IMG/VR virus record: IMGVR_UViG_3300042514_000542
Span: 60,370-124,369 of that record
Reading direction: 5' to 3' (one strand)
DNA: 64,000 nucleotides
DNA from: a virus
Shown: positions 7,668 through 60,381 of the stretch, one piece after another
Layout of the letters: each line of letters begins with the position of its first letter
How positions within the stretch are numbered: position 1 is the first letter of the stretch
Made by a program: the position numbers and the translations under genes
The notes under the pieces: model-generated
The model's database searches: none
Seen by the model: the letters and a program-made list of their open reading frames with translations, nothing else
Told to the model about the DNA's origin: nothing

Positions 7668-8199
7668 GATTTAGAACGATGTTCTTAGTGGCAATTGGTT
7701 GTTCCGATATATGAATGATTTGACCACCAGTGAAGAAGTGACTATGATACACACCCTTTGAAGAGAACCAATAAATGTATTCACATGAGCTTCCATATGT
7801 TCCATCATCTTGTAATACTTCTTCTGTTCTTTTGGCTTGACCACCAATATCAACACTCATTCCGTGAAATTGAGAATCGACAAATTCTCCATCATTAGAA
7901 GTTACAGTGTTTGGAGTTAGACGTTTTCCAGAGGATGTTACCTTACCCATTACAGTTGAATAGAGTAGGACTTGTCCACTGTAAGGACTGATAATATATA
8001 GATGTTTGATAGCACCCGGAACATTATCACGTTTAAGTCTTTCAGCGATATTTCTTTGTTCTGTAGTCCAACCATCTTCATCAGTCTGAACATCAACAGT
8101 TTTCTTTGTGACATTTCCAGATGCGGTTGTGGGATTACTTTCTTCGAGACATGATGTAACGAGAAATGGAATTAGTAGTAGTGTTAGTAGTTTCTTCAT
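7654..8199 (-). CDS. lipoprotein
   Basis: Signal peptide MKKLLTLLLIPFLVTSC with lipobox Cys. Confidence 0.5.
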   Translation of the reverse strand: MKKLLTLLLIPFLVTSCLEESNPTTASGNVTKKTVDVQTDEDGWTTEQRNIAERLKRDNVPGAIKHLYIISPYSGQVLLYSTVMGKVTSSGKRLTPNTVTSNDGEFVDSQFHGMSVDIGGQAKRTEEVLQDDGTYGSSCEYIYWFSSKGVYHSHFFTGGQIIHISEQPIATKNIVLNLESQ

Positions 8200-8205
8200 A
8201 GTTGA

Positions 8206-8227
8206 ATTATAGTTCGGTTTTAATTAA
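8206..8227 (-). promoter_or_regulatory. cassette motif copy
   Basis: +strand ATTATAGTTCGGTTTTAATTAA. Confidence 0.6.
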
Positions 8228-8229
8228 GC

Positions 8230-9600
8230 AGATTACGTTTTCGGTCTATGTTGAATACAGAGTTTATTATTTGCTGAGTGTAATCTTATCAAATCACATT
8301 TTTTGCTACGTGTCCTAGCCATTAGACGATACCATCTTATATAGAATGCGATGGCAGCAGGATTCGAACCTACATCACGATCTTAACAGGATATGCATTA
8401 TTTGCTGTTGTGATTTTATTCAAGAGTCTATTTCACTTTGCGGCAGACACATTATAAGTCTTCCTAAGAAGATTGTTATCGTTCGTCCCGTATCTGTTAC
8501 ATATCTATTACTAGACTTAGTTCCACTATCTACCATCGCCGTATCGGTTTCCCGACTCTAACTACCTTAGTGCCGTTATTCAGTTCTCTATATGCTGTTA
8601 GACTCTTTTTATCAGATTTATTATTGTGGCATCGAATCCACTAATGCTTACGCATATTATCCTTGTTGGTTTGCTGTAATAAATCTTTTCAAAATGCCAT
8701 TGTTGTTTGGACTCCAGCGTTTACCAATTCCGCCATACCTCACATTATTAATAACTGTGGAGGCAGTAGGACTTGAACCTACAAGATTTTCATCGGGAGT
8801 TTTGCTTCCTTTTATTTGCTGTTAGCATTTTTATTACAAATTCTGGCTATTCCTAGCTTATTTCCCTTGTTTATGTAGAGCGGGAAATATAAGAGTCGAA
8901 CTTATTAGTAAGATGCGGACAGAATTTTATCAGAACATGTTTTTGGGAAACCGTTCCCTATTAAGGCGGGAGTCGAACCCTAGCCCCACTTAGTTTTGGT
9001 AGTGATTTATTATTTGCTGTTAATGTTCTTATTCAGAAAAAGTGAAGATTAACTCCTATCTTAAGCTCCATATCACAACCTCTGATATGGTGAGGATACC
9101 CGCACGACTTTCATCGTTTTGCATATTTGCTTTTATTTTTGTTTTAGTTGCTGATACTTTTTCTTATACGATTGACGGATATGGAATCGAACCATTTTAG
9201 TTCCCTCGGGCCACCGACAGGTTATTTGATATAATAATTGTTTTAGTTGCTGAAGTCAATCTATCAGAGGACGTTTTTATTTCAATTAACGTTTGATTTT
9301 ATATATTTGCTGAATGTCCTCTTGTTATGGGATTTCCGATTCGTCACCCACTATTCAGCCTTTTATATCTTTCGACACCGCTTGACTGAATCACTTATTG
9401 ATCGTCTTAAATTTCGGATTACGTTTATTTTCAATAACAATGAATTTGGTTATTTGCTGATTGTAATCCTATATCAGATCGCGTTTTTTATTTCCAATAA
9501 TAAGTTAATATTTGCTGAATACGATCTTGTTGATAGTTTTTATTATTTCGAACCGTAGAACTACCAAACTACTGAGATTCTTTTATGTCCTCTACTCATG
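8230..9600 (-). ncRNA. non-coding region with several tRNA-like T-arm/acceptor motifs (possible divergent or decayed tRNA cluster)
   Basis: No credible ORF. Minus-strand GTAGG-TTCGAAT-CCTGC (~8358), GTAGG-TTCAAGT-CCTAC (~8770), ATAAG-TTCGACT-CTTAT (~8893), GGG-TTCGACT-CCC (~8972), ATGG-TTCGATT-CCAT (~9183). TATTTGCTG box recurs ~10 times. Canonical cloverleaves could not be completed by hand. Confidence 0.35.
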
Positions 9601-9638
9601 TATTTAAACATAGAGTAGAGGTTTGTCAACCACGACAA

Positions 9639-11297
9639 TTAGATTTCAACCATATTGAGGATTTCTTGGTCTAGGGCAATGTTGATAAGATCATAAGTAG
9701 TCTTAATCTTACCACTTAGGAAGCTTACAGCACTGGCTGAATATCCGCCCATATAATATACGTTCTGAACATCTTTACCAGTCTCAAACTTCTCACCAGT
9801 TCCTCGACCATATGCATTACTTTGAAGGTTCCAGAGAACAATCACAAAGTTATCTACATAAGCCTTGGAGAATCCAGCATTACGAAGTGTGTCTAGTGCC
9901 GCTTCAACATTAGTTCTACCTAGTGATGCTGGATTAAACTCTGAATCGGACACTGCTAGAATTCCACTAGGAAAATCTGATTCAGGTGTTCCCTCTCTCT
10001 TCATCTTAGCGAAAAGATTAATAACACTTTGGAAGTTAGTTCCACCATAAAAAGAAGACTTATCATTCTTCCACTTATCGACAGGTGTTTGACCAACCCA
10101 TTTCCTAAGTTTAGCATCGGAATTGAATTCAATCCAATGACCTGCAAAGGTTCCTTGTAGGAATTCACTGAAATATAGTGCTAGAGCTTTACCGACATTA
10201 TAACAACTTGATTTAGTTCCCGGACATTGTGAAGACATGCTGCCGCTTACGTCTCTTACCACGATAAGATCAGTAACTTCGTTATCTCTTGCCTTTTGGA
10301 CAAGTGTATCGAATTGCTTATTGATAGTTGCTTCCTTGTTCTTAACACCCATCCAAGAACCTTCAAAGAGTTCATGAACAAATCCAGTATACTTAACGTC
10401 CTTGGTTTCGGGTGCAGTAATCCATGCGGAATACTTGTCACTAAGACCATGATTCTTAAGGAACTTGGACTTAACAAGAATCGACAATGCACGACCATGA
10501 ATCTTATCAAACTCAAGTTCATTGAACTTAGCCTTAGAGATTAGCTTTTGCCAATCATGTGCGGTTCCACTGTTCTTAAGCTTACGATATTGCTTATAGG
10601 TAGAAGGGGTTTCCTTTTGTCCAAAGATCAATGAGCAGATCCACTTAGCGATTGCATTGTTGGATTGTGCATCAATGGTAGTAGCTTGGCTACGTGCTTT
10701 GATTTGTGGGAGATACTTCTTCACAAGATCACAAGTATTCTTGTTATGAAGTCCTGCAAGAATCAATTGACCAAACTTATCCCAATCAAGCTTACGGTTA
10801 TTCCAACCATTATAGCTAAGGTCATATTGAAGCATGGTGAATACATCGTGCCACGATCCAAGAGATACAAACAATAGGATGTTATTCCAGAATGCTTGTG
10901 GAGACTTGTCATGTAGCCAAATCATACGCATAATTGCTTCATGCTTAAGTTCAGTTCCCTTTTGAGGGGATTCAGTCTTAGTTCCATCAGGAAGATTAAC
11001 CGTGCGAGGAATGGTTCTCATAAACAAGGCAAACTTAGTAGCCTTAAGAGGATCTTCACCCCACAACATTTCACAATCTTGTGCGATTTCAGAATACTTA
11101 CGAGGAACTTTATACTTACCTGCTTTGGTGAACTGGTCAGTTAGGGAATCACCAGAACTTGAAAATTTCTTAGCACCGTTACCTGAACGGGTTACATTTG
11201 ATTGAGCCTTTGCATTATTTAGGAATGCATTAACTTCTCCACGGGTGACAGCTTTCTTAGTAGCTACGACTTCTGGTTTGCGTTTGTTTTCGAACAT
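9639..11297 (-). CDS. vWA-domain protein (MIDAS motif DVSGSM; DUF2828-like)
   Basis: 552 aa; LIVVRDVSGSMSS is a von Willebrand A MIDAS motif; unusually long ~90-nt leader. Confidence 0.5.
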   Translation of the reverse strand: MFENKRKPEVVATKKAVTRGEVNAFLNNAKAQSNVTRSGNGAKKFSSSGDSLTDQFTKAGKYKVPRKYSEIAQDCEMLWGEDPLKATKFALFMRTIPRTVNLPDGTKTESPQKGTELKHEAIMRMIWLHDKSPQAFWNNILLFVSLGSWHDVFTMLQYDLSYNGWNNRKLDWDKFGQLILAGLHNKNTCDLVKKYLPQIKARSQATTIDAQSNNAIAKWICSLIFGQKETPSTYKQYRKLKNSGTAHDWQKLISKAKFNELEFDKIHGRALSILVKSKFLKNHGLSDKYSAWITAPETKDVKYTGFVHELFEGSWMGVKNKEATINKQFDTLVQKARDNEVTDLIVVRDVSGSMSSQCPGTKSSCYNVGKALALYFSEFLQGTFAGHWIEFNSDAKLRKWVGQTPVDKWKNDKSSFYGGTNFQSVINLFAKMKREGTPESDFPSGILAVSDSEFNPASLGRTNVEAALDTLRNAGFSKAYVDNFVIVLWNLQSNAYGRGTGEKFETGKDVQNVYYMGGYSASAVSFLSGKIKTTYDLINIALDQEILNMVEI

Positions 11298-11387
11298 ATT
11301 GTTATTATTGGTTTGTTGTTGAAATTTAATTTACTCTATCTTTTTGGTTTGTCAAGCGATTGGCTTGAACTTTCTTTTGTTGAAGCT

Positions 11388-11409
11388 ATTGTATTTCGGT
11401 TTTAATTAA
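11388..11409 (-). promoter_or_regulatory. cassette motif copy
   Basis: +strand ATTGTATTTCGGTTTTAATTAA; serves the vWA gene through a ~90-nt leader with hairpin CAAGCCAATCGCTTG. Confidence 0.55.
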
Positions 11410-11912
11410 TCTTTCAGAACTTGTAGTCTCCATTTAGCCGTTGATCTACTAATCTGTCTCAATTCCTTTTGGTGTCTATGATGATCAATATCATTCTTAG
11501 CTTTATCGTTTAGAATTCTACGATTGGGGATTTTAATATTATCATAATCATATTCACTTATAAATTGTGGAACATAAAAATAAGAATTTACTGTATCCAT
11601 GGGTTTCTTAAATCTCCACCAACTTCCAAGTTGATAACACCAACATTGATATTTTTTCCAGTATTCATTTTTCTTAGATCGCAATCTAATACAAAACAAT
11701 AGACCTTCACGTTTAGGAAAACCGGGATCATCACATCTTTCAATATATCTTAATGGGCCATCATAATCTCTTCCTTCTTTAGCATAAGCTAACAATTCAT
11801 AATCATAACACTCTTCGGGTGTCAATGGTTCTTCATCTTCTTCGATTGGGATCTGATGCATGATACTAGAGAAGTCAGCATACCAATCAAGTTCTTTAAC
11901 TTTTAGTTTCAT
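11406..11912 (-). CDS. hypothetical protein
   Basis: 168-aa ORF. Confidence 0.5.
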   Translation of the reverse strand: MKLKVKELDWYADFSSIMHQIPIEEDEEPLTPEECYDYELLAYAKEGRDYDGPLRYIERCDDPGFPKREGLLFCIRLRSKKNEYWKKYQCWCYQLGSWWRFKKPMDTVNSYFYVPQFISEYDYDNIKIPNRRILNDKAKNDIDHHRHQKELRQISRSTAKWRLQVLKD

Positions 11913-11924
11913 GTCACTATTGTA

Positions 11925-12230
11925 TTATGGTAGATAATGGGTTACAAACCTTTCCTTAGCTTCCTTAAAATTCCTAGCACCACCTTCAAGATAGTGAAAA
12001 ATATTAGCACCGGAAAGGTCAATAACATTTAGTGGTTTAAAGAAATGTCTAAACACATTACCCTTGCAATCAACAATATACCAAAGGAAACCCTTACCAT
12101 TATCCTTCAAAAATTCAGATAGTAAGCATCCACAACTATTCTTATCAAGATTACCAGTTAGCATATCCAATGGTCTTTCGTCTGGTTGCTCCATCATCCA
12201 ATTATAAACATCTGTTATTGTGTATTTCAT
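11925..12230 (-). CDS. hypothetical protein
   Basis: 101-aa ORF. Confidence 0.5.
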   Translation of the reverse strand: MKYTITDVYNWMMEQPDERPLDMLTGNLDKNSCGCLLSEFLKDNGKGFLWYIVDCKGNVFRHFFKPLNVIDLSGANIFHYLEGGARNFKEAKERFVTHYLP

Positions 12231-12236
12231 ATCGTT

Positions 12237-12258
12237 ATTATAGTTCGGTTTTAATTAT
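12237..12258 (-). promoter_or_regulatory. cassette motif copy
   Basis: +strand ATTATAGTTCGGTTTTAATTAT. Confidence 0.6.
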
Positions 12259-12261
12259 GGT

Positions 12262-13032
12262 TCAAACATCCCACAGTCTAGCAAAGAATTCATCAAGTTC
12301 TTCTTTGGTTATCACGACCTTCTTACTAAAGATATAATCATTGATATCATTATAGTTAGTTAAGTTGAAGTTTTCACCATTAACATAAGACCACCATGAA
12401 CCATTCTTTTGTTGATCGGTGCATTCGGTAGCCCAATTATGTCCAATGTTGTGAAGCATTTCATGTTGATCGGCACGACCTTGACCATGTAGTTCTTTGG
12501 GTGAGAAGAATTGATTACAGAACATACTAAGACTATTACGTTCCCAATCCTTTACTCTCCATAGGAAGACATTGGCAACATCATCTTTAGGACATTGGAA
12601 TGCACGGGCATCAAAGATAGCAGGATTTGAATCTGCAAAATCCCAAACGTTGAAGAATTGTTGATAATTTTTAATTACCCAATTCTTATTAAAGTATGCT
12701 GTCATCATTGCAGCAGTAACACTTTCAATCTTATTCTGTCTACCACCAAACCATTGTTGTGTTTCAATGGTATCACTATCATCCAATACAAATGTCACTT
12801 CATCACTTTGAGCATATAAGGCTTTACATCCTTGCATTTGTTTTGCTACCTCTTTAGCAGACTCAAACATACAAGTAATAAGTGTTTGATCGAAAGGTCT
12901 TTGACAACCCTTTGTGAACTGACTAAAGCACTTGCCATCCACTCGTATAACTATAGGAATTTTAGGTAAGAAATAATTCTCACTTATAGATTCATATCGT
13001 TTTATTCTATCCCCCAAAGAGTCATTTTTCAT
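12262..13032 (-). CDS. Thg1-like protein (tRNA-His guanylyltransferase family, 3'-5' polymerase)
   Basis: RIKRYESISENYFLPKIPIVIRVDGKCFSQFTK...RPFD matches the Thg1/TLP N-terminal palm motifs; 256 aa. Confidence 0.55.
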   Translation of the reverse strand: MKNDSLGDRIKRYESISENYFLPKIPIVIRVDGKCFSQFTKGCQRPFDQTLITCMFESAKEVAKQMQGCKALYAQSDEVTFVLDDSDTIETQQWFGGRQNKIESVTAAMMTAYFNKNWVIKNYQQFFNVWDFADSNPAIFDARAFQCPKDDVANVFLWRVKDWERNSLSMFCNQFFSPKELHGQGRADQHEMLHNIGHNWATECTDQQKNGSWWSYVNGENFNLTNYNDINDYIFSKKVVITKEELDEFFARLWDV

Positions 13033-13972
13033 AATTCCATTTATATCCTTTATGTGTTTGTCTTTTCCCTTTACAACAAGCTACGATAGCTGATGGATCA
13101 AATCCAGTCGATTTGATGCTATCCCATGTTTTAATATGGTTATCATTTAAATCCTTTTGTTCAACTCTTATCCTGTTGTTTACGGGTGTGAAATTTATAT
13201 TATTATTCTTAAAGTAGTTTTTGATGCATTTTATAGGAACACCATATTTTTTGTAAAGCCTGTATATTGTATACTCTTCCGTTTTGAAATCTTTAACTAT
13301 ATCTAAATATTTTAAACTATGATCAATTGGTCCATCTTCATCAATTTTAGAATTTTTTAATTGTTTTATCTCCCACTTATGTTTGTATGATTCTACTGGA
13401 CAGTCACCAATATAATTTAAAAAATGTTTAGCAAATATTCGTTTGATATATATTCTGTTATTGGTGAAGTTGATCCATGATTTCCATTCCTGTAATTGCC
13501 CATTTAGAAACTCTAAACTATCTTTATCGAAGGAATCTGTGCATAATTTAATATATCCATGACTCTTATCTAATGAACCATCACCAACATACCATAACAG
13601 AATTATAGTGTTTGTCAACTCTAAATCTTTCGGAACTATTTTAAGTCCTTCTGGATACCACACCATTCTAAGGTTGTAGAATGTTATGCTGCTCTTAGTT
13701 CTTATGCTATAATTTATATATGTCTTCTTTGTTCTCTTATCGTAAATTTCTCTTCTGATCGGACCATCTTTATATCTGGGAGATACCAAGTCTTTAAGTT
13801 GATTCCATACATACTCCACATGATCTAAATTACTACTACCATACATGAAGCAAGAGCTTTTACCCTTTATAGATAAGCACCCATCACCTAATAAGCATCC
13901 TTGAATTACTTCTAATTCGTATTGTGTTAAATTTATTACACTCATACTATTATTTAGTGTAGAGTGTAACAC
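13022..13972 (-). CDS. LAGLIDADG homing endonuclease
   Basis: Two LAGLIDADG-type motifs (LLGDGCL..., LWYVGDGSL); overlaps the Thg1-like gene start by 11 nt. Confidence 0.6.
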   Translation of the reverse strand: MLHSTLNNSMSVINLTQYELEVIQGCLLGDGCLSIKGKSSCFMYGSSNLDHVEYVWNQLKDLVSPRYKDGPIRREIYDKRTKKTYINYSIRTKSSITFYNLRMVWYPEGLKIVPKDLELTNTIILLWYVGDGSLDKSHGYIKLCTDSFDKDSLEFLNGQLQEWKSWINFTNNRIYIKRIFAKHFLNYIGDCPVESYKHKWEIKQLKNSKIDEDGPIDHSLKYLDIVKDFKTEEYTIYRLYKKYGVPIKCIKNYFKNNNINFTPVNNRIRVEQKDLNDNHIKTWDSIKSTGFDPSAIVACCKGKRQTHKGYKWNYEK

Positions 13973-14297
13973 TTTTCACATTTGGACATAAGAAAGTTCC
14001 AGATATAAGAACGGGTCTGGACTCCGCATGAAAAAGACTCTTACTGTCTATGTGAATGGTGGCCGGGAATTCTCTGTATTATTGAACTTGTTTTCCTTGG
14101 CTCTTATAATGATCTTCCACCGGGACTTCCAGCAGTTATAAGACGGTTCTCAACAGCCGACCATTATATAGAATCAATAGTTGAAGGTAGTCATCAGCAC
14201 CCATCATTCGTCCCGATTTTACGGATCTTTTTAAACTCAGATGATATATACGAAGCTCCGAACTACCACTAAATATACCTAGTCTCAACTATTAAAA

Positions 14298-14648
14298 TTA
14301 TTCAGCCTCAGTGTAGGCACTTTCGATATTAGCTGGGCAAAGCTTAATCTTAGAAGGATCAAGATCCTTGAAGTATTTCAATGCCCTTGCTTCAAGACTT
14401 TCAAATGCCGCAAGAACCATAGCTTCACGTTCCAATACCTTTGGAAGTTGATATGATGGAGCCTTAGCACGGGCGATAGCAATATCAATACCAAGCTTCT
14501 TTTCAAAGCGATCCATCGTAGTGTTAAGAAGAGAGAATCCATAAAGGATTTCATCATTCTCACGAATTGCAACCGCAACACCGCGAGGTTGATTGGTTTG
14601 TGCGTTTCTAATATACTGCTTAATTACTGTTTGTTTTTCTGTTTTCAT
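14298..14648 (-). CDS. hypothetical protein
   Basis: 116-aa ORF. Confidence 0.5.
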   Translation of the reverse strand: MKTEKQTVIKQYIRNAQTNQPRGVAVAIRENDEILYGFSLLNTTMDRFEKKLGIDIAIARAKAPSYQLPKVLEREAMVLAAFESLEARALKYFKDLDPSKIKLCPANIESAYTEAE

Positions 14649-14672
14649 AATTTTGTCTTTCGTTGTAATGCT

Positions 14673-14694
14673 ATTGTATTTCGGTTTTAATTAA
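14673..14694 (-). promoter_or_regulatory. cassette motif copy
   Basis: +strand ATTGTATTTCGGTTTTAATTAA. Confidence 0.6.
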
Positions 14695-14993
14695 CTCTTT
14701 TCGAACTTAGCTTTCAATGCTTCATATTGTCTTTTCTCAAATTCAAACTGTCTTTGATTATACTCTACCTCTTGTTTAAGACGAAGTGCTTCTTCCTCGT
14801 CGGTTTCAAGCTTATCACCATATAGAGTGTGTCTATAATAAGACCCATCTTCACAACTGTAATCGTAATCGAGTTTCAAATTGGTGTATTCATCAGAATA
14901 ATAACCAAACTCTTGTGTCAAGCTATCAATGACTTCATAAAGGGTTCCTGAAAAATGTAGTGTTGTAAGAGTATGTGTCTTTATCTTTTTCAT
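14691..14993 (-). CDS. hypothetical protein
   Basis: 100-aa ORF. Confidence 0.5.
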   Translation of the reverse strand: MKKIKTHTLTTLHFSGTLYEVIDSLTQEFGYYSDEYTNLKLDYDYSCEDGSYYRHTLYGDKLETDEEEALRLKQEVEYNQRQFEFEKRQYEALKAKFEKS

Positions 14994-14999
14994 AACGTT

Positions 15000-15021
15000 A
15001 TTGTATTTCGGTTTTAATTAT
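15000..15021 (-). promoter_or_regulatory. cassette motif copy
   Basis: +strand ATTGTATTTCGGTTTTAATTAT. Confidence 0.6.
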
Positions 15022-15156
15022 GTGGGAAGTAGGGGAATTGCACCTAACCGTAAGACTATACGACTACTAACTAGTCTTCACCGTATAATCCCATAAGCCC
15101 TAATCGTTCGTCCTTATTGAACGCGCCTTTACTCTTTAAGACGTAACTTCCCCGTT

Positions 15157-15420
15157 TTAGATCCTATTACCATCTTTATCATACTTGACTTCAAACCTAT
15201 TAGGGTTCTCCTTGTCATATTTGATATACTCTTTGAATTCATTATCAAAGTCTTCAAAAGATGTGAAGTCTTTCCTATCTTGATATTGGTTAATCACCCT
15301 TTCAAGTTTGGTTGGTTTGTAATCATTATGTGAACCAGATGAGAATGAGAATATCAATCCCAATACTGGAATACCCACAATGAAAAGAAATAATACAATT
15401 GCTATAATAATACATTCCAT
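15157..15420 (-). CDS. small membrane protein
   Basis: 87 aa with N-terminal TM helix; 4-nt gap to the NAMPT-like gene. Confidence 0.45.
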   Translation of the reverse strand: MECIIIAIVLFLFIVGIPVLGLIFSFSSGSHNDYKPTKLERVINQYQDRKDFTSFEDFDNEFKEYIKYDKENPNRFEVKYDKDGNRI

Positions 15421-15424
15421 AATT

Positions 15425-16924
15425 TTAGAAGTGTTTTGCTACCCTCTCACGAATCTCTGCAAGCGTCCATTCTCGAATAATTTTCCCGTTGTTGAAGACT
15501 TCAACAAATTCACAATTAAGAACATCATCCCAAGTTGCCTGATCCTTTAGGTAAAATTCACCTTCAAGATCTTTATAGACTGCGAGCAATCCTTTAGCCG
15601 ATTTCTTCATACCACTAGTATCAGTTTTAGGATCTTTGTAAATTTCCACCAATTCTCCATTCTTAACACAAGCTGTAGCTTTACAAGCCCACCCATCAGT
15701 ATCTCTTGTAACCATTTGATATGTAAAACTTCCGATACCCAAAACAAGATTAGTAGATGCGAAACCCTTAGCTTTAAGACCCTCGCAGATTCTTTCTGCT
15801 ACCTCTAAAGTCACTCCATCACCAAGGATAGCACCAACCTTTTCGTGTAGGACTTTATAACCCTTATCATTAACAGTTCCCCCAAAAATATCCCATAGAA
15901 GTTCAACAGTTCCCAATCTTTCGGGACTACCTTCTGGAGCATCAGGATCACCAATGATAATTAGAACATTATCACCACTATCAGGTCTAAATACCGTTTT
16001 ATTAACGAAGTGTCCTTCACGGGAAAGGATAGCCCTTTGCACATCTTCCTCTCTAAGAGTTACGTTTAGGAAAGACCAATAATCGTAGGTGTCAGAAACT
16101 AAGCTAACAATACCATAAGGTTGAACTTCAGTGATGATGTGAAGCATCATTTCCTTCTCGCTTTTATCTCCCCACGAAGAAACCACGCTATGCTCAGTTG
16201 CGCTCACACTACATCCGACTAATTCTTCATCCGAATTAGCATTGTAATACTCTTCGGCAAAGTCTACACCCCAAACAGTATCAGTTCCTACGAAGCTAGT
16301 TAAATGCCCCATATCTACTAATGCAGCAGCCTCGGTTCCCATACAACCACGGGCAGAAAAATTATGACCCTGAAAAGGAACAAATGTTTCGTCACCAGTT
16401 TCCTTAGCATATTTTTCAAGCAAGAGTCTAAACTGATTTGCGGTAGTCGCAGAAGTAGATAAAGGCCAATAATTAGCACTAATAATAGTTTCAAGATAAT
16501 TAGTTACCCAAAAGAAGTTTTCATCATTAGGTTTAGTATTCCAATATTGAAATGTCGGAACCTTATATGGAACCTTACTACCTTCAGGGAGAGCATATAC
16601 TTGGATAGGTAGATACCCTAGATCATGTAATGCTTCCATGTGCTTAGTTCCTACAACATTCTTCTCTCCCAAGTAGTTATTAACCCTTCTAGTAAAGCGT
16701 TTAATTACCTTTTCCTTTGGTTGATCAAAAAATCCATTCCATTGGTTGATGAAAATCTCTTTAATAACATACTGCATACCTAGTGCAACTACATGTTTCG
16801 GAATGTTTTTTCGATAGGATTTTCTAGGAGTTCCATTACTCACTACTTGTTCGGTATCTGGGTGATAAGCGTTCTTATGGAACATTTTATACCCATCAAT
16901 TTGTGTTTCAGCGTTGTTTTGCAT
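15425..16924 (-). CDS. nicotinamide phosphoribosyltransferase family protein (NadV/NAMPT-like; candidate Namat of an NARP1-type NAD+ reconstitution pathway)
   Basis: 499 aa; length and overall sequence match the NAMPT family from memory of phage NadV proteins. Confidence 0.6.
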   Translation of the reverse strand: MQNNAETQIDGYKMFHKNAYHPDTEQVVSNGTPRKSYRKNIPKHVVALGMQYVIKEIFINQWNGFFDQPKEKVIKRFTRRVNNYLGEKNVVGTKHMEALHDLGYLPIQVYALPEGSKVPYKVPTFQYWNTKPNDENFFWVTNYLETIISANYWPLSTSATTANQFRLLLEKYAKETGDETFVPFQGHNFSARGCMGTEAAALVDMGHLTSFVGTDTVWGVDFAEEYYNANSDEELVGCSVSATEHSVVSSWGDKSEKEMMLHIITEVQPYGIVSLVSDTYDYWSFLNVTLREEDVQRAILSREGHFVNKTVFRPDSGDNVLIIIGDPDAPEGSPERLGTVELLWDIFGGTVNDKGYKVLHEKVGAILGDGVTLEVAERICEGLKAKGFASTNLVLGIGSFTYQMVTRDTDGWACKATACVKNGELVEIYKDPKTDTSGMKKSAKGLLAVYKDLEGEFYLKDQATWDDVLNCEFVEVFNNGKIIREWTLAEIRERVAKHF

Positions 16925-16977
16925 AATTTTATTTAATATTTTTGTTGGAATTATTTACGGAGTGACTAAATAATAGT

Positions 16978-17766
16978 ATGAAGTATTCAAAAGAAGAGGA
17001 ATCATTTATTATTGAGAACTACCCCAAATTCGGTGCGACTTATTGTAGTTCGGTTTTAATTAATAGAGATGTAGAAGCTGTCGGAGCTAAAGCTAGACGA
17101 ATGGGATTGCGACATGAAAGCAATTTTAAACATCCATCATTATGTAAAAATTTTTCTATAGACATAATTGAAAATCCGACAAAAGAGTTTGCATACTTAT
17201 TGGGGTTCTTATGGGCAGATGGATATATTTTAAAAAAGATTGATAAGAAAGGATTCAACCATAATAGAATTGTGTGTGAGATAGTGTCCGATGATTTTGA
17301 TATGATATGGAATAATTTTAAAGATTTTAGTAAGTGGTCTGTTAGTAAAAGAAAAAGAAGAGAGAATTGGAAGGAAACCAAAACTGCGACCATTAACAAT
17401 AAATATCTTTACGAATTTCTAGAATCTTTAGGTTTCAAATCTAAGCTTGAAGGATTCGATAAAGTATTTAAATACCTCCAGAAATTCAATCTTATTGATT
17501 ATTTTATATGTGGATTATTTGATGGTGATGGACATACTGATTTTAAAAAATTAATAGAATTATCATCTTCCATTTCCCAGAATTGGAAATCCATTGAAGA
17601 AATATTTAAAATTAATAACATTTCATACGGTCTTTATTATTACAAACATCCTACTAAAAACCATTCTGCATCCATTATTAAGATTCAAAATATTGAAGGT
17701 TTTAACTGGTTCAATAAAAACTTTCTTAAAAATGATATAGGTTTAAAAAGAAAGAGACTTAATTAA
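16978..17766 (+). CDS. LAGLIDADG homing endonuclease (N-terminal HTH-like region)
   Basis: LLGFLWADGY and GLFDGDGH motifs. + strand; its N-terminal codons read through a cassette motif copy at 17042-17063, so the true start may be the internal Met in RRMGLRHE. Confidence 0.55.
   Translation: MKYSKEEESFIIENYPKFGATYCSSVLINRDVEAVGAKARRMGLRHESNFKHPSLCKNFSIDIIENPTKEFAYLLGFLWADGYILKKIDKKGFNHNRIVCEIVSDDFDMIWNNFKDFSKWSVSKRKRRENWKETKTATINNKYLYEFLESLGFKSKLEGFDKVFKYLQKFNLIDYFICGLFDGDGHTDFKKLIELSSSISQNWKSIEEIFKINNISYGLYYYKHPTKNHSASIIKIQNIEGFNWFNKNFLKNDIGLKRKRLN
17042..17063 (-). promoter_or_regulatory. cassette motif copy displaced ~118 nt from the NAMPT-like start by homing-endonuclease insertion
   Basis: +strand ATTGTAGTTCGGTTTTAATTAA, lying inside the + strand endonuclease ORF. 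Confidence 0.5.
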
Positions 17767-24008: not shown

Positions 24009-24030
24009 ATTATAGTTCGGTTTTAATTAG
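24009..24030 (-). promoter_or_regulatory. cassette motif copy (read through as C-terminal ..LIKTEL of the upstream gene)
   Basis: +strand ATTATAGTTCGGTTTTAATTAG. Confidence 0.6.
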
Positions 24031-24666
24031 CTTGTTTGGAATTACTTCCGAATGCATCCAGTGTGTATCAGTCGTAACATGATTTGGTCTTACCCATTTC
24101 GCCACATTACTTCCAAAGTTTTCATATGCAAATCCATCGGCATTGCGAACTACGTATCCTTCATGCACCTTACGATCCCTATTCATAAAGTCTTCAATAT
24201 ATACTGAAACATTACCGGGACTTCTTTCATCCCATAGAAAAGGCTTGGCTATAATAGGAACATGTTCAATACCCAACAACTGACAGAACTCTACAGTATC
24301 TTTCCAAGACAAGCAATAGTTAGTTTCATCCCAAATGGAGAAACAGTAGAAGTATGATTTAAGATCATCATAACCAATGGAATGTTTAGCGTAAAGATTC
24401 TCACCACACACTCTCCATCCTTCTGGAATGTCATTCTTAATAGATGCATGAAATTGTTTGATCCATGAACGTGATGGATGATCTTTACTATCCAATGAAC
24501 GAGCATGATAATGATCATTATATAGAGTGGAATTTTCACCATCCATCTTTTCGGTGATAATCATTGACTTACCATTGAAGCATGAAGTATCCTTAAGAAT
24601 TTTATCATCAGAAGTCGCTCCCGGCGACCAGTTAAGGTGCTTTGTTCGTGGATACTTAATTTTCAT
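24010..24666 (-). CDS. RNA ligase family protein (nucleotidyltransferase motif I KxDG)
   Basis: 218 aa; N-terminal KYPRTKHL and MIITEKMDGEN match the RNA_ligase (Rnl2/PF09414-like) family. Confidence 0.5.
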   Translation of the reverse strand: MKIKYPRTKHLNWSPGATSDDKILKDTSCFNGKSMIITEKMDGENSTLYNDHYHARSLDSKDHPSRSWIKQFHASIKNDIPEGWRVCGENLYAKHSIGYDDLKSYFYCFSIWDETNYCLSWKDTVEFCQLLGIEHVPIIAKPFLWDERSPGNVSVYIEDFMNRDRKVHEGYVVRNADGFAYENFGSNVAKWVRPNHVTTDTHWMHSEVIPNKLIKTEL

Positions 24667-25000: not shown

Positions 25001-25029
25001 ATTGTTATTTCGGTTCCGATCCTATTAAA
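25001..25029 (-). promoter_or_regulatory. degenerate cassette motif copy
   Basis: +strand ATTGTTATTTCGGTTCCGATCCTATTAAA; an insertion disrupts the TTAATTAA box. Confidence 0.4.
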
Positions 25030-25834
25030 TTTTACACCATTTCCTGTCCATTTTAGGAACATCAATAGACAACAGTTTATTTCTCAAATAGATATACTTT
25101 CCAGTCTTTAAATTACCACCAAAAGATAGCTTATATACCATATTTGTATTTTTGATTTTTTTAATCGTGGTATCTATATTACAATAACTAGAAAACACGT
25201 TCTTTATAAATTGTAAAATATCACATGTCCCAATAATGGTAATAATTTGATTTCCATGGCTAGAAGCGATACAACCATCTCCATCTATATACCCTATTAT
25301 ATAGGCCAAAGCATGATTAACTGTTGGTATGTTTTCTGGCGGTTTAATCGTCGCCGTCTTATTCTGAGTAATGTTAAATCTATTAACTAATGTATTAACA
25401 ATATCTGGAACCCCGGTGAATTCACATCCGACATATTTTCCACCACCTCTAAAATAAAGTGGGCCATCATATTTAAAGTGTTCTTTTAACAGATTAACTG
25501 TCTTTAAATCTCTAGAGTGTAGCGTTAAACGAACCCTATTATTGGCTTCATCAATACATCCATCTGCTGCTAACAACCCAACCAAATACCAAGTCGTCAG
25601 ATCATCATTATCGAAAGCCTTCTGATCTATATTATATCTTGAGCCTTTACGTTTACCATTTCTTTTACTTTTACGCACACCAATATCTAAAATAGATCTA
25701 CAAGATTTACATTGGGAAGTGTAAAGGTTTTTACTTTTTGATCTTTTATAAAAAGATTCTAATGGTTTAGTTTCTTTACAGGTTGTGCAGGTTTTGTTGT
25801 TAGTCATACTATTATTTAGTGTGATCAACAACAA
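25025..25834 (-). CDS. LAGLIDADG homing endonuclease with N-terminal zinc finger
   Basis: LVGLLAADGCI and IIGYIDGDGCI motifs; N-terminal CTTCK...CKSC. Confidence 0.6.
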   Translation of the reverse strand: MLLITLNNSMTNNKTCTTCKETKPLESFYKRSKSKNLYTSQCKSCRSILDIGVRKSKRNGKRKGSRYNIDQKAFDNDDLTTWYLVGLLAADGCIDEANNRVRLTLHSRDLKTVNLLKEHFKYDGPLYFRGGGKYVGCEFTGVPDIVNTLVNRFNITQNKTATIKPPENIPTVNHALAYIIGYIDGDGCIASSHGNQIITIIGTCDILQFIKNVFSSYCNIDTTIKKIKNTNMVYKLSFGGNLKTGKYIYLRNKLLSIDVPKMDRKWCKI

Positions 25835-26346: not shown

Positions 26347-27009
26347 TCAAGACGTTCTTTGATGGTCTAAAATTTGTATGGATTTTGTTGACATCACATC
26401 TTCAATTTCGGAAAAACTCCAGACACTATTCTTATAGTCCCAACCAACATCCAATCCTTTTTGATATTGTGCATCTGGTTTACGACCTTTATCTTGTAGG
26501 TGGGAATGTCCAGATAATTGCCAAGCCCCACGATTATCCTTGTGCCAAATCCTTAGAGGAAAGTGGTTCATAACAATAATCTGCGTTCCTATCATAATCT
26601 CTTGATGATTTCCTATGAAGGTAAGATTCTTATACTTCAATGGGTAAATCTCCACATCGACAATACCGTATTGTTCTACTATCTGTTCCTTATAAATCCT
26701 ATACATGTTGGATTCATGATTCCCCCACATGACATAAATATTCTTACAATTAAGTCTATCGATCCAACCATTACATTGACCATCGGTAGCATTTAGGAAA
26801 AAATCTCCAAGGAACCACAATGTATCATCCTCACCAACAGTATCATTAATCTCCCTAAGAGTTTGTTCTGCTGCTTCCTCTGCATTATTATATCCACGCA
26901 TTTCCCAAATAGGGGAAGTCCAAGTTTTTGGATCGTGGAAAACATGCCAATCACTACTCCAATAGTGTTTGTTCCTCTGGTCGTATGGGAATTTCAGTAT
27001 TTTGTGCAT
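26347..27009 (-). CDS. metallophosphoesterase (calcineurin-like)
   Basis: 220 aa with GDFF, GNHE and GHSH motifs. Confidence 0.6.
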   Translation of the reverse strand: MHKILKFPYDQRNKHYWSSDWHVFHDPKTWTSPIWEMRGYNNAEEAAEQTLREINDTVGEDDTLWFLGDFFLNATDGQCNGWIDRLNCKNIYVMWGNHESNMYRIYKEQIVEQYGIVDVEIYPLKYKNLTFIGNHQEIMIGTQIIVMNHFPLRIWHKDNRGAWQLSGHSHLQDKGRKPDAQYQKGLDVGWDYKNSVWSFSEIEDVMSTKSIQILDHQRTS

Positions 27010-28654: not shown

Positions 28655-29890
28655 TTATTTTACTTCTAATAGATATTTGATTCTGATTTGATTTCCATTA
28701 TAGACAATCAATTCGTCATTTAGGAAAGATGTGTTTTGTGGCAATGCCCAGCAGGAATCATATCCAGATGGTAATTGACTGAAAGTATGTTTTGTATAGT
28801 AAGGATTACCCATCACGAAGTCACAGATAAATAACCACCCACTATCACCCTTACCTTGACCCCATCTACCTAGAGTATACCCTAAACTTTTTGATGCTGT
28901 TTCAGATCCGTAAGTCCCGTTTCCAAAGGCTTTTCCGGCTATAGCGACAGTAGATGGTGGACTAGGTTGTAGACCACTTTTTAAAATACTGAGAATATTT
29001 GCGGAAGAACTTCCATGCCACACTTCCTTAACATTCACCGGATTCTTCACAAAGTTAGCATTGTAATCCACAATGTCAACCTCATAAATGTTGATAATTT
29101 TAACATGTTGATAATGATGCATTGGTTTATTCGTGCTATTATACCAATCTTGAATTTTCTTAATAACCTTGGGATCAGTCACCAGAGACATATTGAGATT
29201 GAATACCTTTTCAGTAGAAGGTTTAGTGGCATCAACAGGTGCTTTAAGTGCCATTTCAACACTGTTATCAAGAGCGTCCAATACATCAGATTCCTTCTTA
29301 ACTACATCAACATTTGGAAAGATATTCTCATATAATAATCCACCACCCTTTGGTCTTGGGATGATCTTAAGATAATCATCAATTTTTTGATTGAAATCAT
29401 CCTGACCATTCTTCTTAATGTTTTTGAAGAAGTAATCGAGTAGAATACGTGCCTCTGAGATACCCTCTTTGGTTACGATACCCAAGGGGGTTTGGAATAC
29501 ACCGTTATTGAAACTAATACTAGTTGAGTTGGTGATCTTATGGACATTGCTATCTGCAAGTCTCTTAACAAGAGTCTTAAGACTACTATCCGATAACTTA
29601 ATTTGTGATAAGGCGATATCCGCCAATGACGTATTAGCAATAACCTTATTGGTTACAGCACCTTCCATTAGGACTTTAGCATGAGTATAACCCTTACGTT
29701 CCTTCTCACGGATTTTCTTATCAAAAAATGACTTACCAACACATCCGAAATCCTTTGATTGTGGGTTCTTTGCCCCAACTACACCAAATTCCGCCATAAC
29801 TCTTCCGTCGTCATGTAATTCGGCTTGCCAAAACTTATATGAGTTAGCTTTTAAGTCTGAGAAAACGAGCTTTACTTTTTCTTTTATCAT
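28655..29890 (-). CDS. poly(ADP-ribose) polymerase-like protein (WGR domain + PARP catalytic domain)
   Basis: N-terminal WGR-like YKFWQAEL...FGVVG. C-terminal VWHGSSSANILSILKSGL...TYGSE...IVYNGNQIRIKYLLEVK aligns with the eukaryotic PARP1 catalytic core (LWHGS...IVYDIAQVNLKYLLKLKF) recalled from memory. Confidence 0.65.
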   Translation of the reverse strand: MIKEKVKLVFSDLKANSYKFWQAELHDDGRVMAEFGVVGAKNPQSKDFGCVGKSFFDKKIREKERKGYTHAKVLMEGAVTNKVIANTSLADIALSQIKLSDSSLKTLVKRLADSNVHKITNSTSISFNNGVFQTPLGIVTKEGISEARILLDYFFKNIKKNGQDDFNQKIDDYLKIIPRPKGGGLLYENIFPNVDVVKKESDVLDALDNSVEMALKAPVDATKPSTEKVFNLNMSLVTDPKVIKKIQDWYNSTNKPMHHYQHVKIINIYEVDIVDYNANFVKNPVNVKEVWHGSSSANILSILKSGLQPSPPSTVAIAGKAFGNGTYGSETASKSLGYTLGRWGQGKGDSGWLFICDFVMGNPYYTKHTFSQLPSGYDSCWALPQNTSFLNDELIVYNGNQIRIKYLLEVK

Positions 29891-40777: not shown

Positions 40778-40816
40778 CTATATTATTTAGTCAAAACTGG
40801 ATGGTTTCAACCAAAA

Positions 40817-43497: not shown

Positions 43498-44072
43498 CCA
43501 AGTGCATTGAGCATCTGAATCTTCAATTTTTCAAAATCATCTTTTTGATATCCCATTTTCTCTTTCCATACTTCAAACTCATTAACTCTTACGAATTGTT
43601 CTTTTGGTAGATTGTTTAGGAATGCGGCTTTACCATATTGTTCTCTGGAATGTTCACAATACGGTAGATTATCAACCAATATGTTATGAGTGTTGACGAA
43701 CTTGGGATTTACTTCTATGGATAAAATATCTTCTCTCGAAAAAATATTCGAATTTGGATCAAACCCCAATTCAAGTTTCTTATTACACCATCTTATGTAG
43801 TCCCCTACTGATGCTGTTAGAATATAGACATTATCATGCCCTACCAATTCTCTGGAAAATTTGATAAGATCATCCGTCCACGATCTTTTACAGGTAACAT
43901 ACCATTCTATTTCACCATGAACATCCCAACCCTTGGGATTCACGTAAAACTTCTCACATCTCCAATGTTCACCATACATGTCAATCAATTGATCAGCATG
44001 TTTCTCATGGTCGGCGTATAAGCTGTGGGCAAGGCATTCGTCGTAATCGAGCATAATAACTCTTTTTTTCAT
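43488..44072 (-). CDS. hypothetical protein, possible HAD-like hydrolase (5'-nucleotidase-like)
   Basis: N-terminal IMLDYDECL resembles HAD motif I; weak. Confidence 0.4.
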   Translation of the reverse strand: MKKRVIMLDYDECLAHSLYADHEKHADQLIDMYGEHWRCEKFYVNPKGWDVHGEIEWYVTCKRSWTDDLIKFSRELVGHDNVYILTASVGDYIRWCNKKLELGFDPNSNIFSREDILSIEVNPKFVNTHNILVDNLPYCEHSREQYGKAAFLNNLPKEQFVRVNEFEVWKEKMGYQKDDFEKLKIQMLNALGIN

Positions 44073-44086
44073 ATTTTTTGTAGATT

Positions 44087-45100
44087 ATGGTGTGTGATAG
44101 GTTAAATATATTTATGCGAAAGTCAAAAATTAGTTTAGCAGATGAAGAAGCGATTGTCAATCAGTATTTAAAGGAAAAAAATGTAGAAAAATTAAGATCT
44201 AAATATAAAACATCATTTAAAGATATTAAAAATATTCTAATTAAAAATAATATATATTCAGGTAGAAGATCAACTTCATTGAATTTAAAATATTTTGAAA
44301 ATATAGATAGTAATGAAAAAGCTTATTGGTTAGGATTTATTTCGGCTGATGGATCTTTGTCTAAAAATGGGTATAAATTATCCTTTGGTGTTAAGGATTC
44401 TGATATATTAGAAAAATTTAAAAGAGCCATATCATCTGGAAGCCCTGTATCAGATTTCAACGTATATGATGAGAGGACAGATAAAACTTACAATAGATAT
44501 AGTCTTCAGATATGTTCTAAAGAATTTTGCCAATATATAAGAAATCATGGAGTTGATGAAAACAAGTCAAAAGTATTCAAATTCCCAAAGATTGATGAGA
44601 AATATTACTCCCATTTTATTAGAGGGTTATATGACGGTGATGGTAGTATATGTATAGTCAAATCCAAGGTTATAGAGAATATCAACTTTAGGGCAAATAT
44701 TATAAGTTCTTTGGAGTGTGTTAACTACATTAAAGTTTATTTAGAAAGCATCAATATCTCATCTAATAAAATATTTTCCAAACACGACCAAAATATTCAC
44801 TATATTACATTTGGAAAGGACGTTATTAAATTTTTAAATTGGATTTATAAAGACTCATCCGAAGAAACTAGGTTGGATAGAAAATACAATAAATTTATCG
44901 ATAATCTACATGATTATAATACCCAACATAAGATTTTTCAAATTAAAAATCATCAAACCGGAGTTACACATAAAGTTAAGAATTTGATTAAATTCTGTAA
45001 AGATAATAATTTAAACGATAATTACTTGAGGTATAATATGACTAATGGAAAAATTCCAACAAAAGGTAAGCACTTAGGATGGGAATTATTACCCAATTAA
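44087..45100 (+). CDS. LAGLIDADG homing endonuclease
   Basis: LGFISADGS and GLYDGDGS motifs; + strand; no cassette motif upstream. Confidence 0.6.
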   Translation: MVCDRLNIFMRKSKISLADEEAIVNQYLKEKNVEKLRSKYKTSFKDIKNILIKNNIYSGRRSTSLNLKYFENIDSNEKAYWLGFISADGSLSKNGYKLSFGVKDSDILEKFKRAISSGSPVSDFNVYDERTDKTYNRYSLQICSKEFCQYIRNHGVDENKSKVFKFPKIDEKYYSHFIRGLYDGDGSICIVKSKVIENINFRANIISSLECVNYIKVYLESINISSNKIFSKHDQNIHYITFGKDVIKFLNWIYKDSSEETRLDRKYNKFIDNLHDYNTQHKIFQIKNHQTGVTHKVKNLIKFCKDNNLNDNYLRYNMTNGKIPTKGKHLGWELLPN

Positions 45101-45104
45101 TCTA

Positions 45105-45839
45105 TCATACTTTATATTCTTTCTCAGAGTCAAAGAAAAATAACTCATTTATATCTACACAGCGACAATATACACCATCAACAGTTTGTCTCATATTGTT
45201 GTGCATATGTCCGTGGAATATTGTTTTACATTCGACCACCTTTACTATTTCACTTACCAATTCTCTCTGGGCGAGACAGTCATGATAAAGTGTTGGGTCT
45301 ACGTCATGAAATCTTTTCCAGTGTGTTGGTATGGTATGTGATGAGTGATTAAACTGTTCGGGACAATCATGTGAAAACATGATATCACATTTCTCTATAA
45401 CTTTATAGTCTATTGGTATTGTTCCTTCGGCAGTCCAATAATCATAATCTTGTCTTCTACTATATCTATCAATGCTTATACCACCAGCAAGTAATAATGC
45501 CTTCTTCCCATTAGGGAATACTGCATATGCATGATCTTTAATTAGGAAAACATTTGAAAATTTCTGATCCCATATTTCATCATATGTTGCATCATGATTA
45601 CCACGGATGATGTAAAAATTAATACCTAAATTATGACATAGTTTATTAGTATTATACAACCACATAGTTGTATTCTTAATGGCATATTCTTTTTTGGCAA
45701 ATCCCAAGCCAACATCACCCAGATGGATAAGATCAACCCCGCCATCAACCCTACTTCCTATGATATCTTTGGTAATTTGTTGTGAATGTGTATCACCTAA
45801 AAGGATCACTTTATCATTTTTGAATTTATAATTTTCCAT
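45105..45839 (-). CDS. metallophosphoesterase
   Basis: GDTH, GDVG and GNHD motifs; 244 aa. Confidence 0.55.
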   Translation of the reverse strand: MENYKFKNDKVILLGDTHSQQITKDIIGSRVDGGVDLIHLGDVGLGFAKKEYAIKNTTMWLYNTNKLCHNLGINFYIIRGNHDATYDEIWDQKFSNVFLIKDHAYAVFPNGKKALLLAGGISIDRYSRRQDYDYWTAEGTIPIDYKVIEKCDIMFSHDCPEQFNHSSHTIPTHWKRFHDVDPTLYHDCLAQRELVSEIVKVVECKTIFHGHMHNNMRQTVDGVYCRCVDINELFFFDSEKEYKV

Positions 45840-60358: not shown

Positions 60359-60381
60359 ATTATTATTTAGTTATAAAGTTA

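Follow-up and report, generated by a model that had tools for sequence, protein, structure and literature searches.

The 64-kb window analysed here (IMG/VR record IMGVR_UViG_3300042514_000542, positions 60,370–124,369; coordinates below are those of the window) encodes a Thg1-like protein (TLP) whose catalytic residues are, as judged from sequence, intact, with a LAGLIDADG homing endonuclease gene abutting its start. On balance we favour an explanation in which the intact TLP rebuilds RNA 5′ ends within an RNA-maintenance neighbourhood that a homing endonuclease has recently joined. The window, scanned for features with Pfam, PHROG, Rfam and ARAGORN, encodes a T4-type tail sheath, rIIA and rIIB and therefore belongs to an uncultured T4-like myovirus, in keeping with the phage origin proposed in the initial annotation of this DNA; it has no megablast match among 50,697 phage records. 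Relatives, cited by locus label, were gathered by exact-protein and pattern look-ups and form a clade of ~200-kb phages.

A phage TLP with an intact active site

The gene is a single open reading frame (ORF):

12262..13032, minus strand: TLP gene, 256 residues, bacterial TLP type, ATG start (ORF list)

Its translation carries the motifs PIVIRVDGKCFSQFTKGCQRPFDQ quoted in the initial annotation, including VIRVDGKCFSQFTK...RPFD. In the profile search which that annotation proposed, Pfam Thg1 (PF04446) matches at 105.3 bits (curated cut-off 29.2 bits; E 2.8e-30) over profile positions 2–130 of 130, and PHROG 4717 ('tRNA-His guanylyltransferase') matches at E 1e-71. The best PDB sequence match is the Bacillus thuringiensis TLP (BtTLP, 4kgk; E 9.3e-40, residues 4–201), with which the ORF is colinear from residue 4 onwards in an unbroken reading frame; eukaryotic Thg1s and the archaeal TLP score just 1e-10 to 5e-05. 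Sequence similarity to the family is thus far above chance. There are 421 homologues at E ≤ 1e-10, many of them full length with 70–93% identity.

Alignment with 4kgk pairs D32, D77 and E78 with D30, D75 and E76 of BtTLP, the three conserved carboxylates (human D29, D76 and E77), of which D30 and D75 coordinate two Mg2+ ions (PMC3701042). Similarly, E14, R30 and R143 pair with BtTLP E12, R28 and R131, which place the incoming nucleotide (PMC3701042). A MAFFT alignment of 52 TLP relatives (44–86% identity) leaves E14, R30, D32, S76, D77, E78, K101, R143 and N166 invariant; the carboxylates, whose loss had been named at the outset as the point on which the assignment could fall, are present throughout. 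The residues for 5′-end activation and nucleotidyl transfer are all kept, S76, K101 and N166 being the equivalents of yeast S75, K96 and N161 (for K101 and N166, by our own reading of the alignment). HINNLYN is absent: ERNSL--S lies opposite the HINNLYN of C. albicans Thg1, where BtTLP has KNSISM, which marks the protein as a TLP rather than a tRNA-His-specific Thg1. Given this and the weak match to eukaryotic Thg1, the name tRNA-His guanylyltransferase is unsuitable.

An AlphaFold2 model built on the alignment (mean predicted local distance difference test score, pLDDT, 91.6) has the polymerase-like palm fold of the solved Thg1 and TLP structures. Foldseek ranks BtTLP first (4kgm_B, E 1.1e-20, template-modelling (TM) scores 0.75/0.84), and the following 31 matches are Thg1 or TLP structures without exception; the palm domain weakly resembles nucleotide cyclases and Cas10 (ranks 34–47). 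Profile, PDB and fold matches together uphold the earlier family assignment, and we take the ORF to be a TLP with its predicted catalytic residues intact. It shares family, fold, approximate length, carboxylates, nucleotide-binding residues and the lack of HINNLYN with BtTLP (PDB 4KGK/4KGM) and other bacterial TLPs at ~33% identity, and differs from BtTLP in being encoded by a T4-like phage, in its last ~55 residues, which do not align by sequence, and in a variable insertion at ~117–137 (a low-pLDDT block). With eukaryotic Thg1 (3OTB, 3WBZ and 5XOX) it has in common the palm fold, the two-metal carboxylates and, by prediction, the two-step chemistry.

Phage TLPs, and the proposal that they repair tRNA 5′ ends, are already on record, and this one adds a further member. 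Homologues occur in 164 isolate genomes, many of them annotated, and PHROG 4717 covers them; its members include Rhodococcus phages Grayson and Weasels2, Omega-like mycobacteriophages, Bacillus phage vB_BmeM-Goe8 and Cronobacter phage GAP32. Identity of the window TLP to isolates is 34–50%, with none above 50% and no match at the DNA level. As in Grayson, it lies near genes for NAMPT and PRPP synthetase (the Kalah2 TLP is near a polynucleotide kinase); what sets it apart from these isolates is the adjoining Ro60-like gene with its array of Y-like RNAs, together with the endonuclease that abuts its start.

tRNA genes near phage TLPs

Among 80 viral TLP loci, 26 have tRNA genes no more than 6 kb from the TLP gene. 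Nearly all of these tRNA genes share its strand, and in about a dozen loci the distance is ~1 kb or less; in close relatives a tRNA or tRNA-like element stands 30–450 nucleotides (nt) upstream of the TLP gene. Given these genes and elements, the best-supported mechanism for the window TLP would be the family's known templated 3′–5′ rebuilding of truncated 5′ ends in tRNAs or tRNA-like RNAs, in a phage with a large investment in RNA maintenance. Individual cases include a tRNA-Ala ~30 nt upstream of the TLP gene in L094 (151–222), tRNA-His and tRNA-Ser 450–650 nt upstream in L014 (5348–5551), and, in L004, L005 and L006 (7887–7960), a weak tRNA-Val(GAC)-like gene at a distance of 41 nt, within a GGGCGG/CCGCCC stem. 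Apparent acceptor mismatches of this last gene in the Rfam alignment had raised the idea of tRNA 5′-editing, which we rejected: in the ARAGORN fold the A/U-rich stem is paired throughout, and nothing therefore points to editing substrates.

The TLP could instead be a dedicated tRNA-His maturation enzyme, adding G-1 to phage or host tRNA-His that is without it. Source names and the PHROG label say as much, TLPs of bacteria and archaea are able to add G-1 opposite C73, and a tRNA-His(GUG) gene lies upstream of the TLP in two relatives of 61–62% identity (0.6 kb in L014, 2.6 kb in L015). However, tRNA-His is found in only 2 of the 26 loci with nearby tRNAs and in neither the window nor its close relatives, and the missing HINNLYN is the motif tied to tRNA-His anticodon recognition in eukaryotic Thg1. 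The best match, BtTLP, has 5′-end repair over a broad tRNA range as its described primary function (PMC3701042). We regard a dedicated role in tRNA-His maturation as unlikely.

A free-standing homing endonuclease at the TLP start

The features upstream of the TLP gene, and those elsewhere that share their leader or type, are:

13022..13945, minus strand: free-standing LAGLIDADG homing endonuclease, 307 residues from ATG (Pfam, PHROG and source-contig gene calls)
13946..14297, minus strand: ORF-free stretch of 352 nt between a 116-residue gene and the endonuclease, holding CTAAATAATA just 5′ of the endonuclease ATG
12879..14378, minus strand: 1.5-kb tract 100% identical to L007 (per-100-nt identity profile)
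16978–17766, plus strand: LAGLIDADG_3-type endonuclease between a 146-residue gene and NAMPT, inside a 3.5-kb L007-identical tract
25025–25834, minus strand: LAGLIDADG_3-type endonuclease with an N-terminal zinc-finger-like region
13948–13957 (minus), 16966–16975 (plus), 25810–25819 (minus), 40781–40790 (minus) and 60361–60370 (minus): copies of CTAAATAATA

The endonuclease stop codon falls within TLP codons 2–4, an overlap of 11 nt, and Pfam LAGLIDADG_2 (PF03161) matches at 69.6 bits (cut-off 25), so that the initial annotation was right to place a LAGLIDADG endonuclease against the TLP start. A GTG start at 13972 would lengthen the protein to 316 residues (ORF 13022..13972); gene callers use the ATG at 13945. 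The translation has two LAGLIDADG motifs with the conserved Asp (LLGDGCL and YVGDGSL) and matches PHROG 11023 at E 5.8e-30, and its C-terminal stretch has weak NUMOD-like or HNH-family similarity (I-HmuI NUMOD-like, 18.1 bits, below the cut-off of 27). We consider it free-standing because the TLP frame is uninterrupted and no intron model matched. An intron- or intein-encoded enzyme was rejected on the same grounds, the endonuclease being a separate ORF with its own start and the TLP colinear with BtTLP.

Among the loci compared, only the window (with its duplicate L003) and L007 have the endonuclease. It is absent from about ten syntenic relatives (L004–6, L008/9, L010/11, L012, L013, L035, L169/170, L171, L172/173 and the P0022 contig), the last of which stems from the window contig's own metagenome sample (3300059473). 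The endonuclease proteins of the window and L007 are 100% identical, as against 83% for the TLP, 91% for the upstream 116-residue protein and 71% for the downstream 101-residue protein. The identical tract begins ~80 nt before the end of the 116-residue gene, takes in the 352-nt non-coding stretch and the endonuclease gene, and extends ~155 nt into the TLP gene; its flanks are at 84–87% upstream and at 91–97% falling to 43–74% downstream. Such a profile suggests co-conversion or recent transfer. Relative to endonuclease-free alleles ~46 nt including the TLP start are replaced, so that the TLP begins MKNDSLGD where the endonuclease is present and MKDGLGD or MNNKDGLGD where it is absent. A second tract, of 3.5 kb, is also 100% identical to L007 (18784–15285).

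CTACACTAAATAATAGTATG stands before the endonuclease gene and before the LAGLIDADG-type genes at 16978 (plus) and 25807 (minus). The window holds five copies of CTAAATAATA against 0.61 expected: three directly precede LAGLIDADG-type genes (starting at 13945, 16978 and 25807) and the remaining two lie just 5′ of ORFs starting at 40777 and 60358, the latter adjoining the tail-sheath gene. CTAAATAATA is therefore a candidate T4-type late promoter. A scan of 8000–15500 for sigma-70 promoters and terminators gave nothing above shuffles.

Within the 352-nt stretch, a 181-nt non-coding element (14172..13992, minus) is 95% identical to the endonuclease-free relative L169 (5068–5249), better conserved than the genes that flank it, and L008 and L171 have a shorter core, resembling a hairpin, a little way upstream of the TLP region. 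We rejected the stretch as a structured RNA, since it matches nothing in Rfam and folds no more stably than expected (z −0.63 and −0.14). Scanning viral contigs with a degenerate pattern for its conserved hairpin returned 72 matches, none with the flanking arms.

The initial annotation further proposed that the TLP locus is a homing target. Presence and absence of the endonuclease together with the 1.5-kb identical tract support homing; specificity for the TLP locus does not follow, as three LAGLIDADG genes share their leader within 13 kb. Because the two further LAGLIDADG genes are both that close to the TLP gene, ordinary T4-like endonuclease traffic is indicated. Seg and Mob are free-standing homing endonucleases of T4-like phages, for which co-conversion of adjacent sequence is expected. 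Like them, the window endonuclease is inserted between genes and against a conserved one, follows a late-promoter-like leader, is present in some relatives and absent from others, and lies in an identical tract that reaches into the neighbouring gene. It differs in being LAGLIDADG rather than GIY-YIG or HNH and, unlike most LAGLIDADG enzymes, which are intron- or intein-encoded, comes with neither intron nor intein. Its closest isolate homologues are ~30% identical (an 'RNA maturase' of Bacillus phage phiNIT1, and haloviruses). It is a mobile element of the ordinary kind, from a family less common among free-standing phage endonucleases.

Such traffic also invites the view that the TLP gene is dispensable cargo without a selected function, carried along by recombination and endonucleases. 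The region is mosaic, endonuclease-rich and hypervariable, and the distribution of the gene among phages is sporadic (PMC7824862). Against this, the gene is full length, its active site is invariant over the 52 relatives despite identities of 44–86%, and its position is conserved in at least 12 distinct genomes; we give the cargo explanation almost no credence.

A Ro60-like protein and an array of tRNA-mimicking RNAs

About 1 kb downstream of the TLP gene, on the same strand, is the gene for a Ro60-like protein, with an array of small RNA units directly downstream of it:

9639..11297, minus strand: Ro60-like (TROVE and vWA fold) RNA-binding protein of the DUF2828/DUF7788 family, 552 residues (Pfam, PHROG and Foldseek)
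8230..9527, minus strand: tandem array of 11 Y-RNA-like units, ORF-free, ~1.3–1.4 kb, directly downstream of the Ro60-like gene

The protein matches Pfam DUF7788 (41.3 bits) and PHROG 850 ('RNA-binding protein'). Its AlphaFold2 model (pLDDT 81) contains the HEAT-repeat ring and vWA fold of Ro60, and Foldseek places Ro60 2i91 first (E 6.5e-06, TM 0.52/0.54), then 1yvr, then the Ro60 of Thermus phage phiLo (9l5y). At E ≤ 0.01 the Pfam TROVE profile is not matched, DUF7788 being the only hit (with DUF2828 in relatives), and there is no PDB sequence match at E ≤ 1. Homologues occur in 510 phage isolate records (Felixounavirus, Listeria P100-like, Enterococcus and mycobacteriophages); those of mycobacteriophages are annotated 'Ro-like RNA binding protein'.

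Each array unit is formed by a 7–10-base-pair (bp) closing stem, with CAGCAA(A/C)TA (two variants) immediately 3′ of its 5′ strand and, in most units, GA(T/A)A following its 3′ strand. The first motif occurs 12 times in the window (0.84 expected), nine times in the array on one strand; closing stems score 9.4 versus 6.2 ± 2.1 in shuffles, and GA[TA]A follows the stem in 9 of 11 units versus a 2% background. At least three longer units (T-arms at 8905, 8782 and 8373) hold a complete module of T-arm, 7-bp acceptor-like stem with an A/U-rich loop, and D-arm, and three more hold T-arm-like hairpins; NCA or CCA often comes directly after the acceptor-like stems. Over 11 tRNA-like modules from seven genomes the T-arm is 100% paired and the acceptor-like stem 96% paired, with compensatory changes at all seven of its pairs. 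None of 500 shuffles reaches the covariation score, and slid controls pair at 39–51%. In the module alignment 89% of cells are paired (69% in shuffles) and 11 of 16 pairs have double changes.

YrlA-type Y RNAs combine a closing stem with T-arm, acceptor-like stem-loop and D-arm in that order, and Mycobacterium smegmatis YrlA, with its 7-bp acceptor stem, undergoes RNase P cleavage and acquires CCA (PMC4201824). Ro60 together with Y-like RNAs has been described in phages as well (PMC12135203). The predicted fold of the array modules has this YrlA-type topology, and the locus agrees with the Ro60/Rsr and YrlA-type systems of bacteria, mycobacteriophages and phiLo in its Ro60 fold, adjoining small RNA genes and pairing of closing stem and tRNA-like domain. 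It differs in a protein that by sequence matches DUF2828/DUF7788 instead of Pfam TROVE, in 11 tandem units rather than 1–4, and in the Ro-binding motif GNCGAAN0-1G, which is missing from the units and in whose place stands CAGCAAAUA. No Rfam Y-RNA family is matched by the array at E ≤ 1; ARAGORN calls no tRNA within it, and Rfam gives sub-threshold matches alone. The DUF2828-type Ro60-like gene, the 11-unit array and the new motif together are a new variation on the Ro60/Y-RNA theme and the most interesting feature of the vicinity.

Arrays were seen just in relatives that have the Ro60-like gene. Array-like units (closing stem, CAGCAAA.., CTGATAAG, one with a T-arm) also occur at 6915–7300 of L246, the cultured cyanophage Lbo-JY46 of Leptolyngbya (PP438436.1), directly downstream of its 44%-identical Ro60-like gene, and are unannotated there. 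Two window units (9265–9321 and 9475–9526, minus) have sub-threshold Rfam matches to Dictyostelium Class I RNA (30.7 and 30.9 bits; gathering threshold 41.5), which shares with the array units a short terminal stem followed by a ..CAGCAA motif; this resemblance is probably a coincidence.

The TLP may work with this module, either maintaining the 5′ ends of RNase P-cut units or being tethered by them to the Ro60-like ring, as a dedicated particle for RNA repair. In at least seven relatives the two protein genes share a strand, that of the TLP lying ~1 kb upstream; the modules' 7-bp acceptor-like stems, often followed by NCA or CCA, and the tRNA-like pieces immediately 5′ of the TLP gene in relatives fit this idea, and Y RNAs are known tethers of effector enzymes (PMC4201824, PMC12135203). 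Yet the TLP and the Ro60-like module are also found apart, and among 81 TLP loci the Ro60-like gene lies within 6 kb only in the window's own clade. We consider such a partnership quite unlikely. Its fullest form, a Ro60-like/Y-RNA particle of this T4-like clade that has the TLP as a functioning component, with mimics opened by RNase P and 5′-completed by the TLP or else tethering it, is a longer shot; in such a particle the mimics might perhaps also bring RNA ligase to RNAs captured by the Ro60-like ring.

Wider gene neighbourhood

The order rIIA, rIIB, PRPP synthetase, NAMPT, small genes, TLP, small genes and a 550-residue DUF7788 protein is kept in at least seven distinct genomes. Further genes around the TLP are:

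11925..12230, minus strand: 101-residue ORF between the TLP and Ro60-like genes, 71% identical in L007
11406..11912, minus strand: 168-residue ORF between the TLP and Ro60-like genes, 90% identical in L007
15425–16924 and 18253–19173, minus strand: NAMPT and PRPP synthetase (NAD salvage), 2–6 kb from the TLP gene
24010..24666, minus strand: RNA ligase, PF09414 (112.9 bits, E 2.3e-32) and PHROG RNA ligase families, 11 kb upstream of the TLP gene on the same strand
26347..27009, minus strand: calcineurin-like metallophosphoesterase (Pfam Metallophos, 29.9 bits; PHROG 547, phosphoesterase)

Neither small ORF has a Pfam, PHROG or NCBIfam match; L172 has a 168-residue gene at the place of the second (compared by position only). 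The RNA ligase and the metallophosphoesterase, a possible end-healing enzyme, lie 11–14 kb upstream of the TLP gene on its strand. That the ligase might be split by the third endonuclease was rejected, its ORF (24010–24666) spanning the entire PF09414 profile.

Clustering of 1,753 ORFs from 81 diverse TLP loci left NAMPT (13 of 81) and PRPP synthetase (11 of 81) as the sole families that recur outside the close clade; they lie near TLP genes in unrelated phages such as Grayson (including loci L001, L057 and L080–L088). We rejected the idea that phage TLPs are generally linked to genes for RNA ligase, kinase or Ro60, none of which recurs beyond the close clade. The recurrence of NAMPT and PRPP synthetase, with the weak palm similarity to nucleotide cyclases and Cas10, could be taken to mean that the protein is a palm enzyme with a non-repair role, in 5′ modification of other RNAs or in the synthesis or degradation of a nucleotide signal, linked to recurring NAD-salvage and anti-defence genes. 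All residues specific to the two-step Thg1/TLP reaction are retained, however, TLPs surpass cyclases as fold matches by ~15 orders of magnitude, and adjacency to NAD salvage may simply reflect a common auxiliary-gene region. A non-repair role is thus highly improbable.

Several observations concern other parts of the region. In L004 and L006 (5117–7486) and L005 (4973–6704) NAMPT is called as two ORFs, NAMPT_N of ~275 residues and NAPRTase of ~285 residues, with an opposite-strand 234-residue ORF between them in L004 and L006; this may be an insertion or a split gene. At 28655–29890 (minus) the window encodes a 411-residue protein with a poly(ADP-ribose) polymerase (PARP) catalytic domain (88 bits) and a borderline WGR match (21.5 bits, cut-off 22), by these matches a phage-encoded PARP-like gene. 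At 44001–46000 the G+C content falls to 0.30 and the GC skew changes sign, and a 337-residue plus-strand ORF (44087–45100) sits amid an otherwise minus-strand region, which may be another mobile insertion.

Discussion

In the mechanism that we favour, the TLP would activate a 5′-monophosphate RNA end using ATP or GTP, as its homologues do, and would then add nucleotides in the 3′–5′ direction with the 3′ strand of the tRNA acceptor stem as template, thereby rebuilding 5′-truncated tRNAs or tRNA-like RNAs during infection. It may form part of an RNA-maintenance neighbourhood with the Ro60-like protein, the 11 Y-RNA-like tRNA mimics, the RNA ligase and the phosphoesterase, which NAD-salvage genes adjoin. 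The endonuclease, free-standing and presumably driven by the candidate late promoter, appears to have recently entered the slot between the conserved non-coding element and the TLP start codon, presumably at a target site of its own; its arrival would have replaced ~46 nt, the first TLP codons among them, and carried along ~155 nt of the TLP gene by co-conversion. Phage Thg1 has already been proposed for 5′-end restoration, and Thg1 and a ROT/TROVE protein with a tRNA-like partner are listed among the sporadic RNA-repair components of jumbo phages (Iyer et al. 2021, PMC7824862).

Several points weigh against this explanation. ARAGORN calls no tRNA gene in the 64-kb window, and a biochemical study of a phage TLP was not found in the searchable literature. 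We know of no nuclease that trims tRNA 5′ ends as a phage defence. The adjacency of TLP and Ro60-like genes is clade-specific: L172/L173, L010/L011 and L035 keep the TLP without a Ro60-like gene, Lbo-JY46 has the Ro60-like gene and array with no TLP within 6 kb, and RNA ligases do not recur across the 81 TLP loci. As for the endonuclease, the second tract identical to L007 means that general recombination between co-infecting relatives, rather than endonuclease-driven homing, may explain the mosaic and the 1.5-kb tract with it. The initial annotation went further in suggesting that a phage copy guards against 5′-end tRNA damage; neither such damage nor such a defence is in evidence and the window is without a tRNA gene, and a link to host defence, an idea already in print (PMC7824862), is at most conjectural.

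For the modest question of why phages carry a TLP, the locus is a clean and intact case whose many natural variants would allow templated 5′-end repair to be tested. The endonuclease polymorphism, with endonuclease-free relatives in the same sample (3300059473), is a natural system for the study of free-standing LAGLIDADG homing in T4-like phages. The value of the locus is raised by the Ro60-like gene and unusually long array of tRNA mimics that adjoin the TLP: as a predicted enzyme of tRNA-end repair, the TLP is a concrete candidate partner for the tRNA-like domain of bacterial Y RNAs. Were the two to work together, this domain would gain in the TLP its first assigned effector, and a Ro60–TLP particle would be the phage repair counterpart of the Ro60–Y RNA–PNPase degradation machine.

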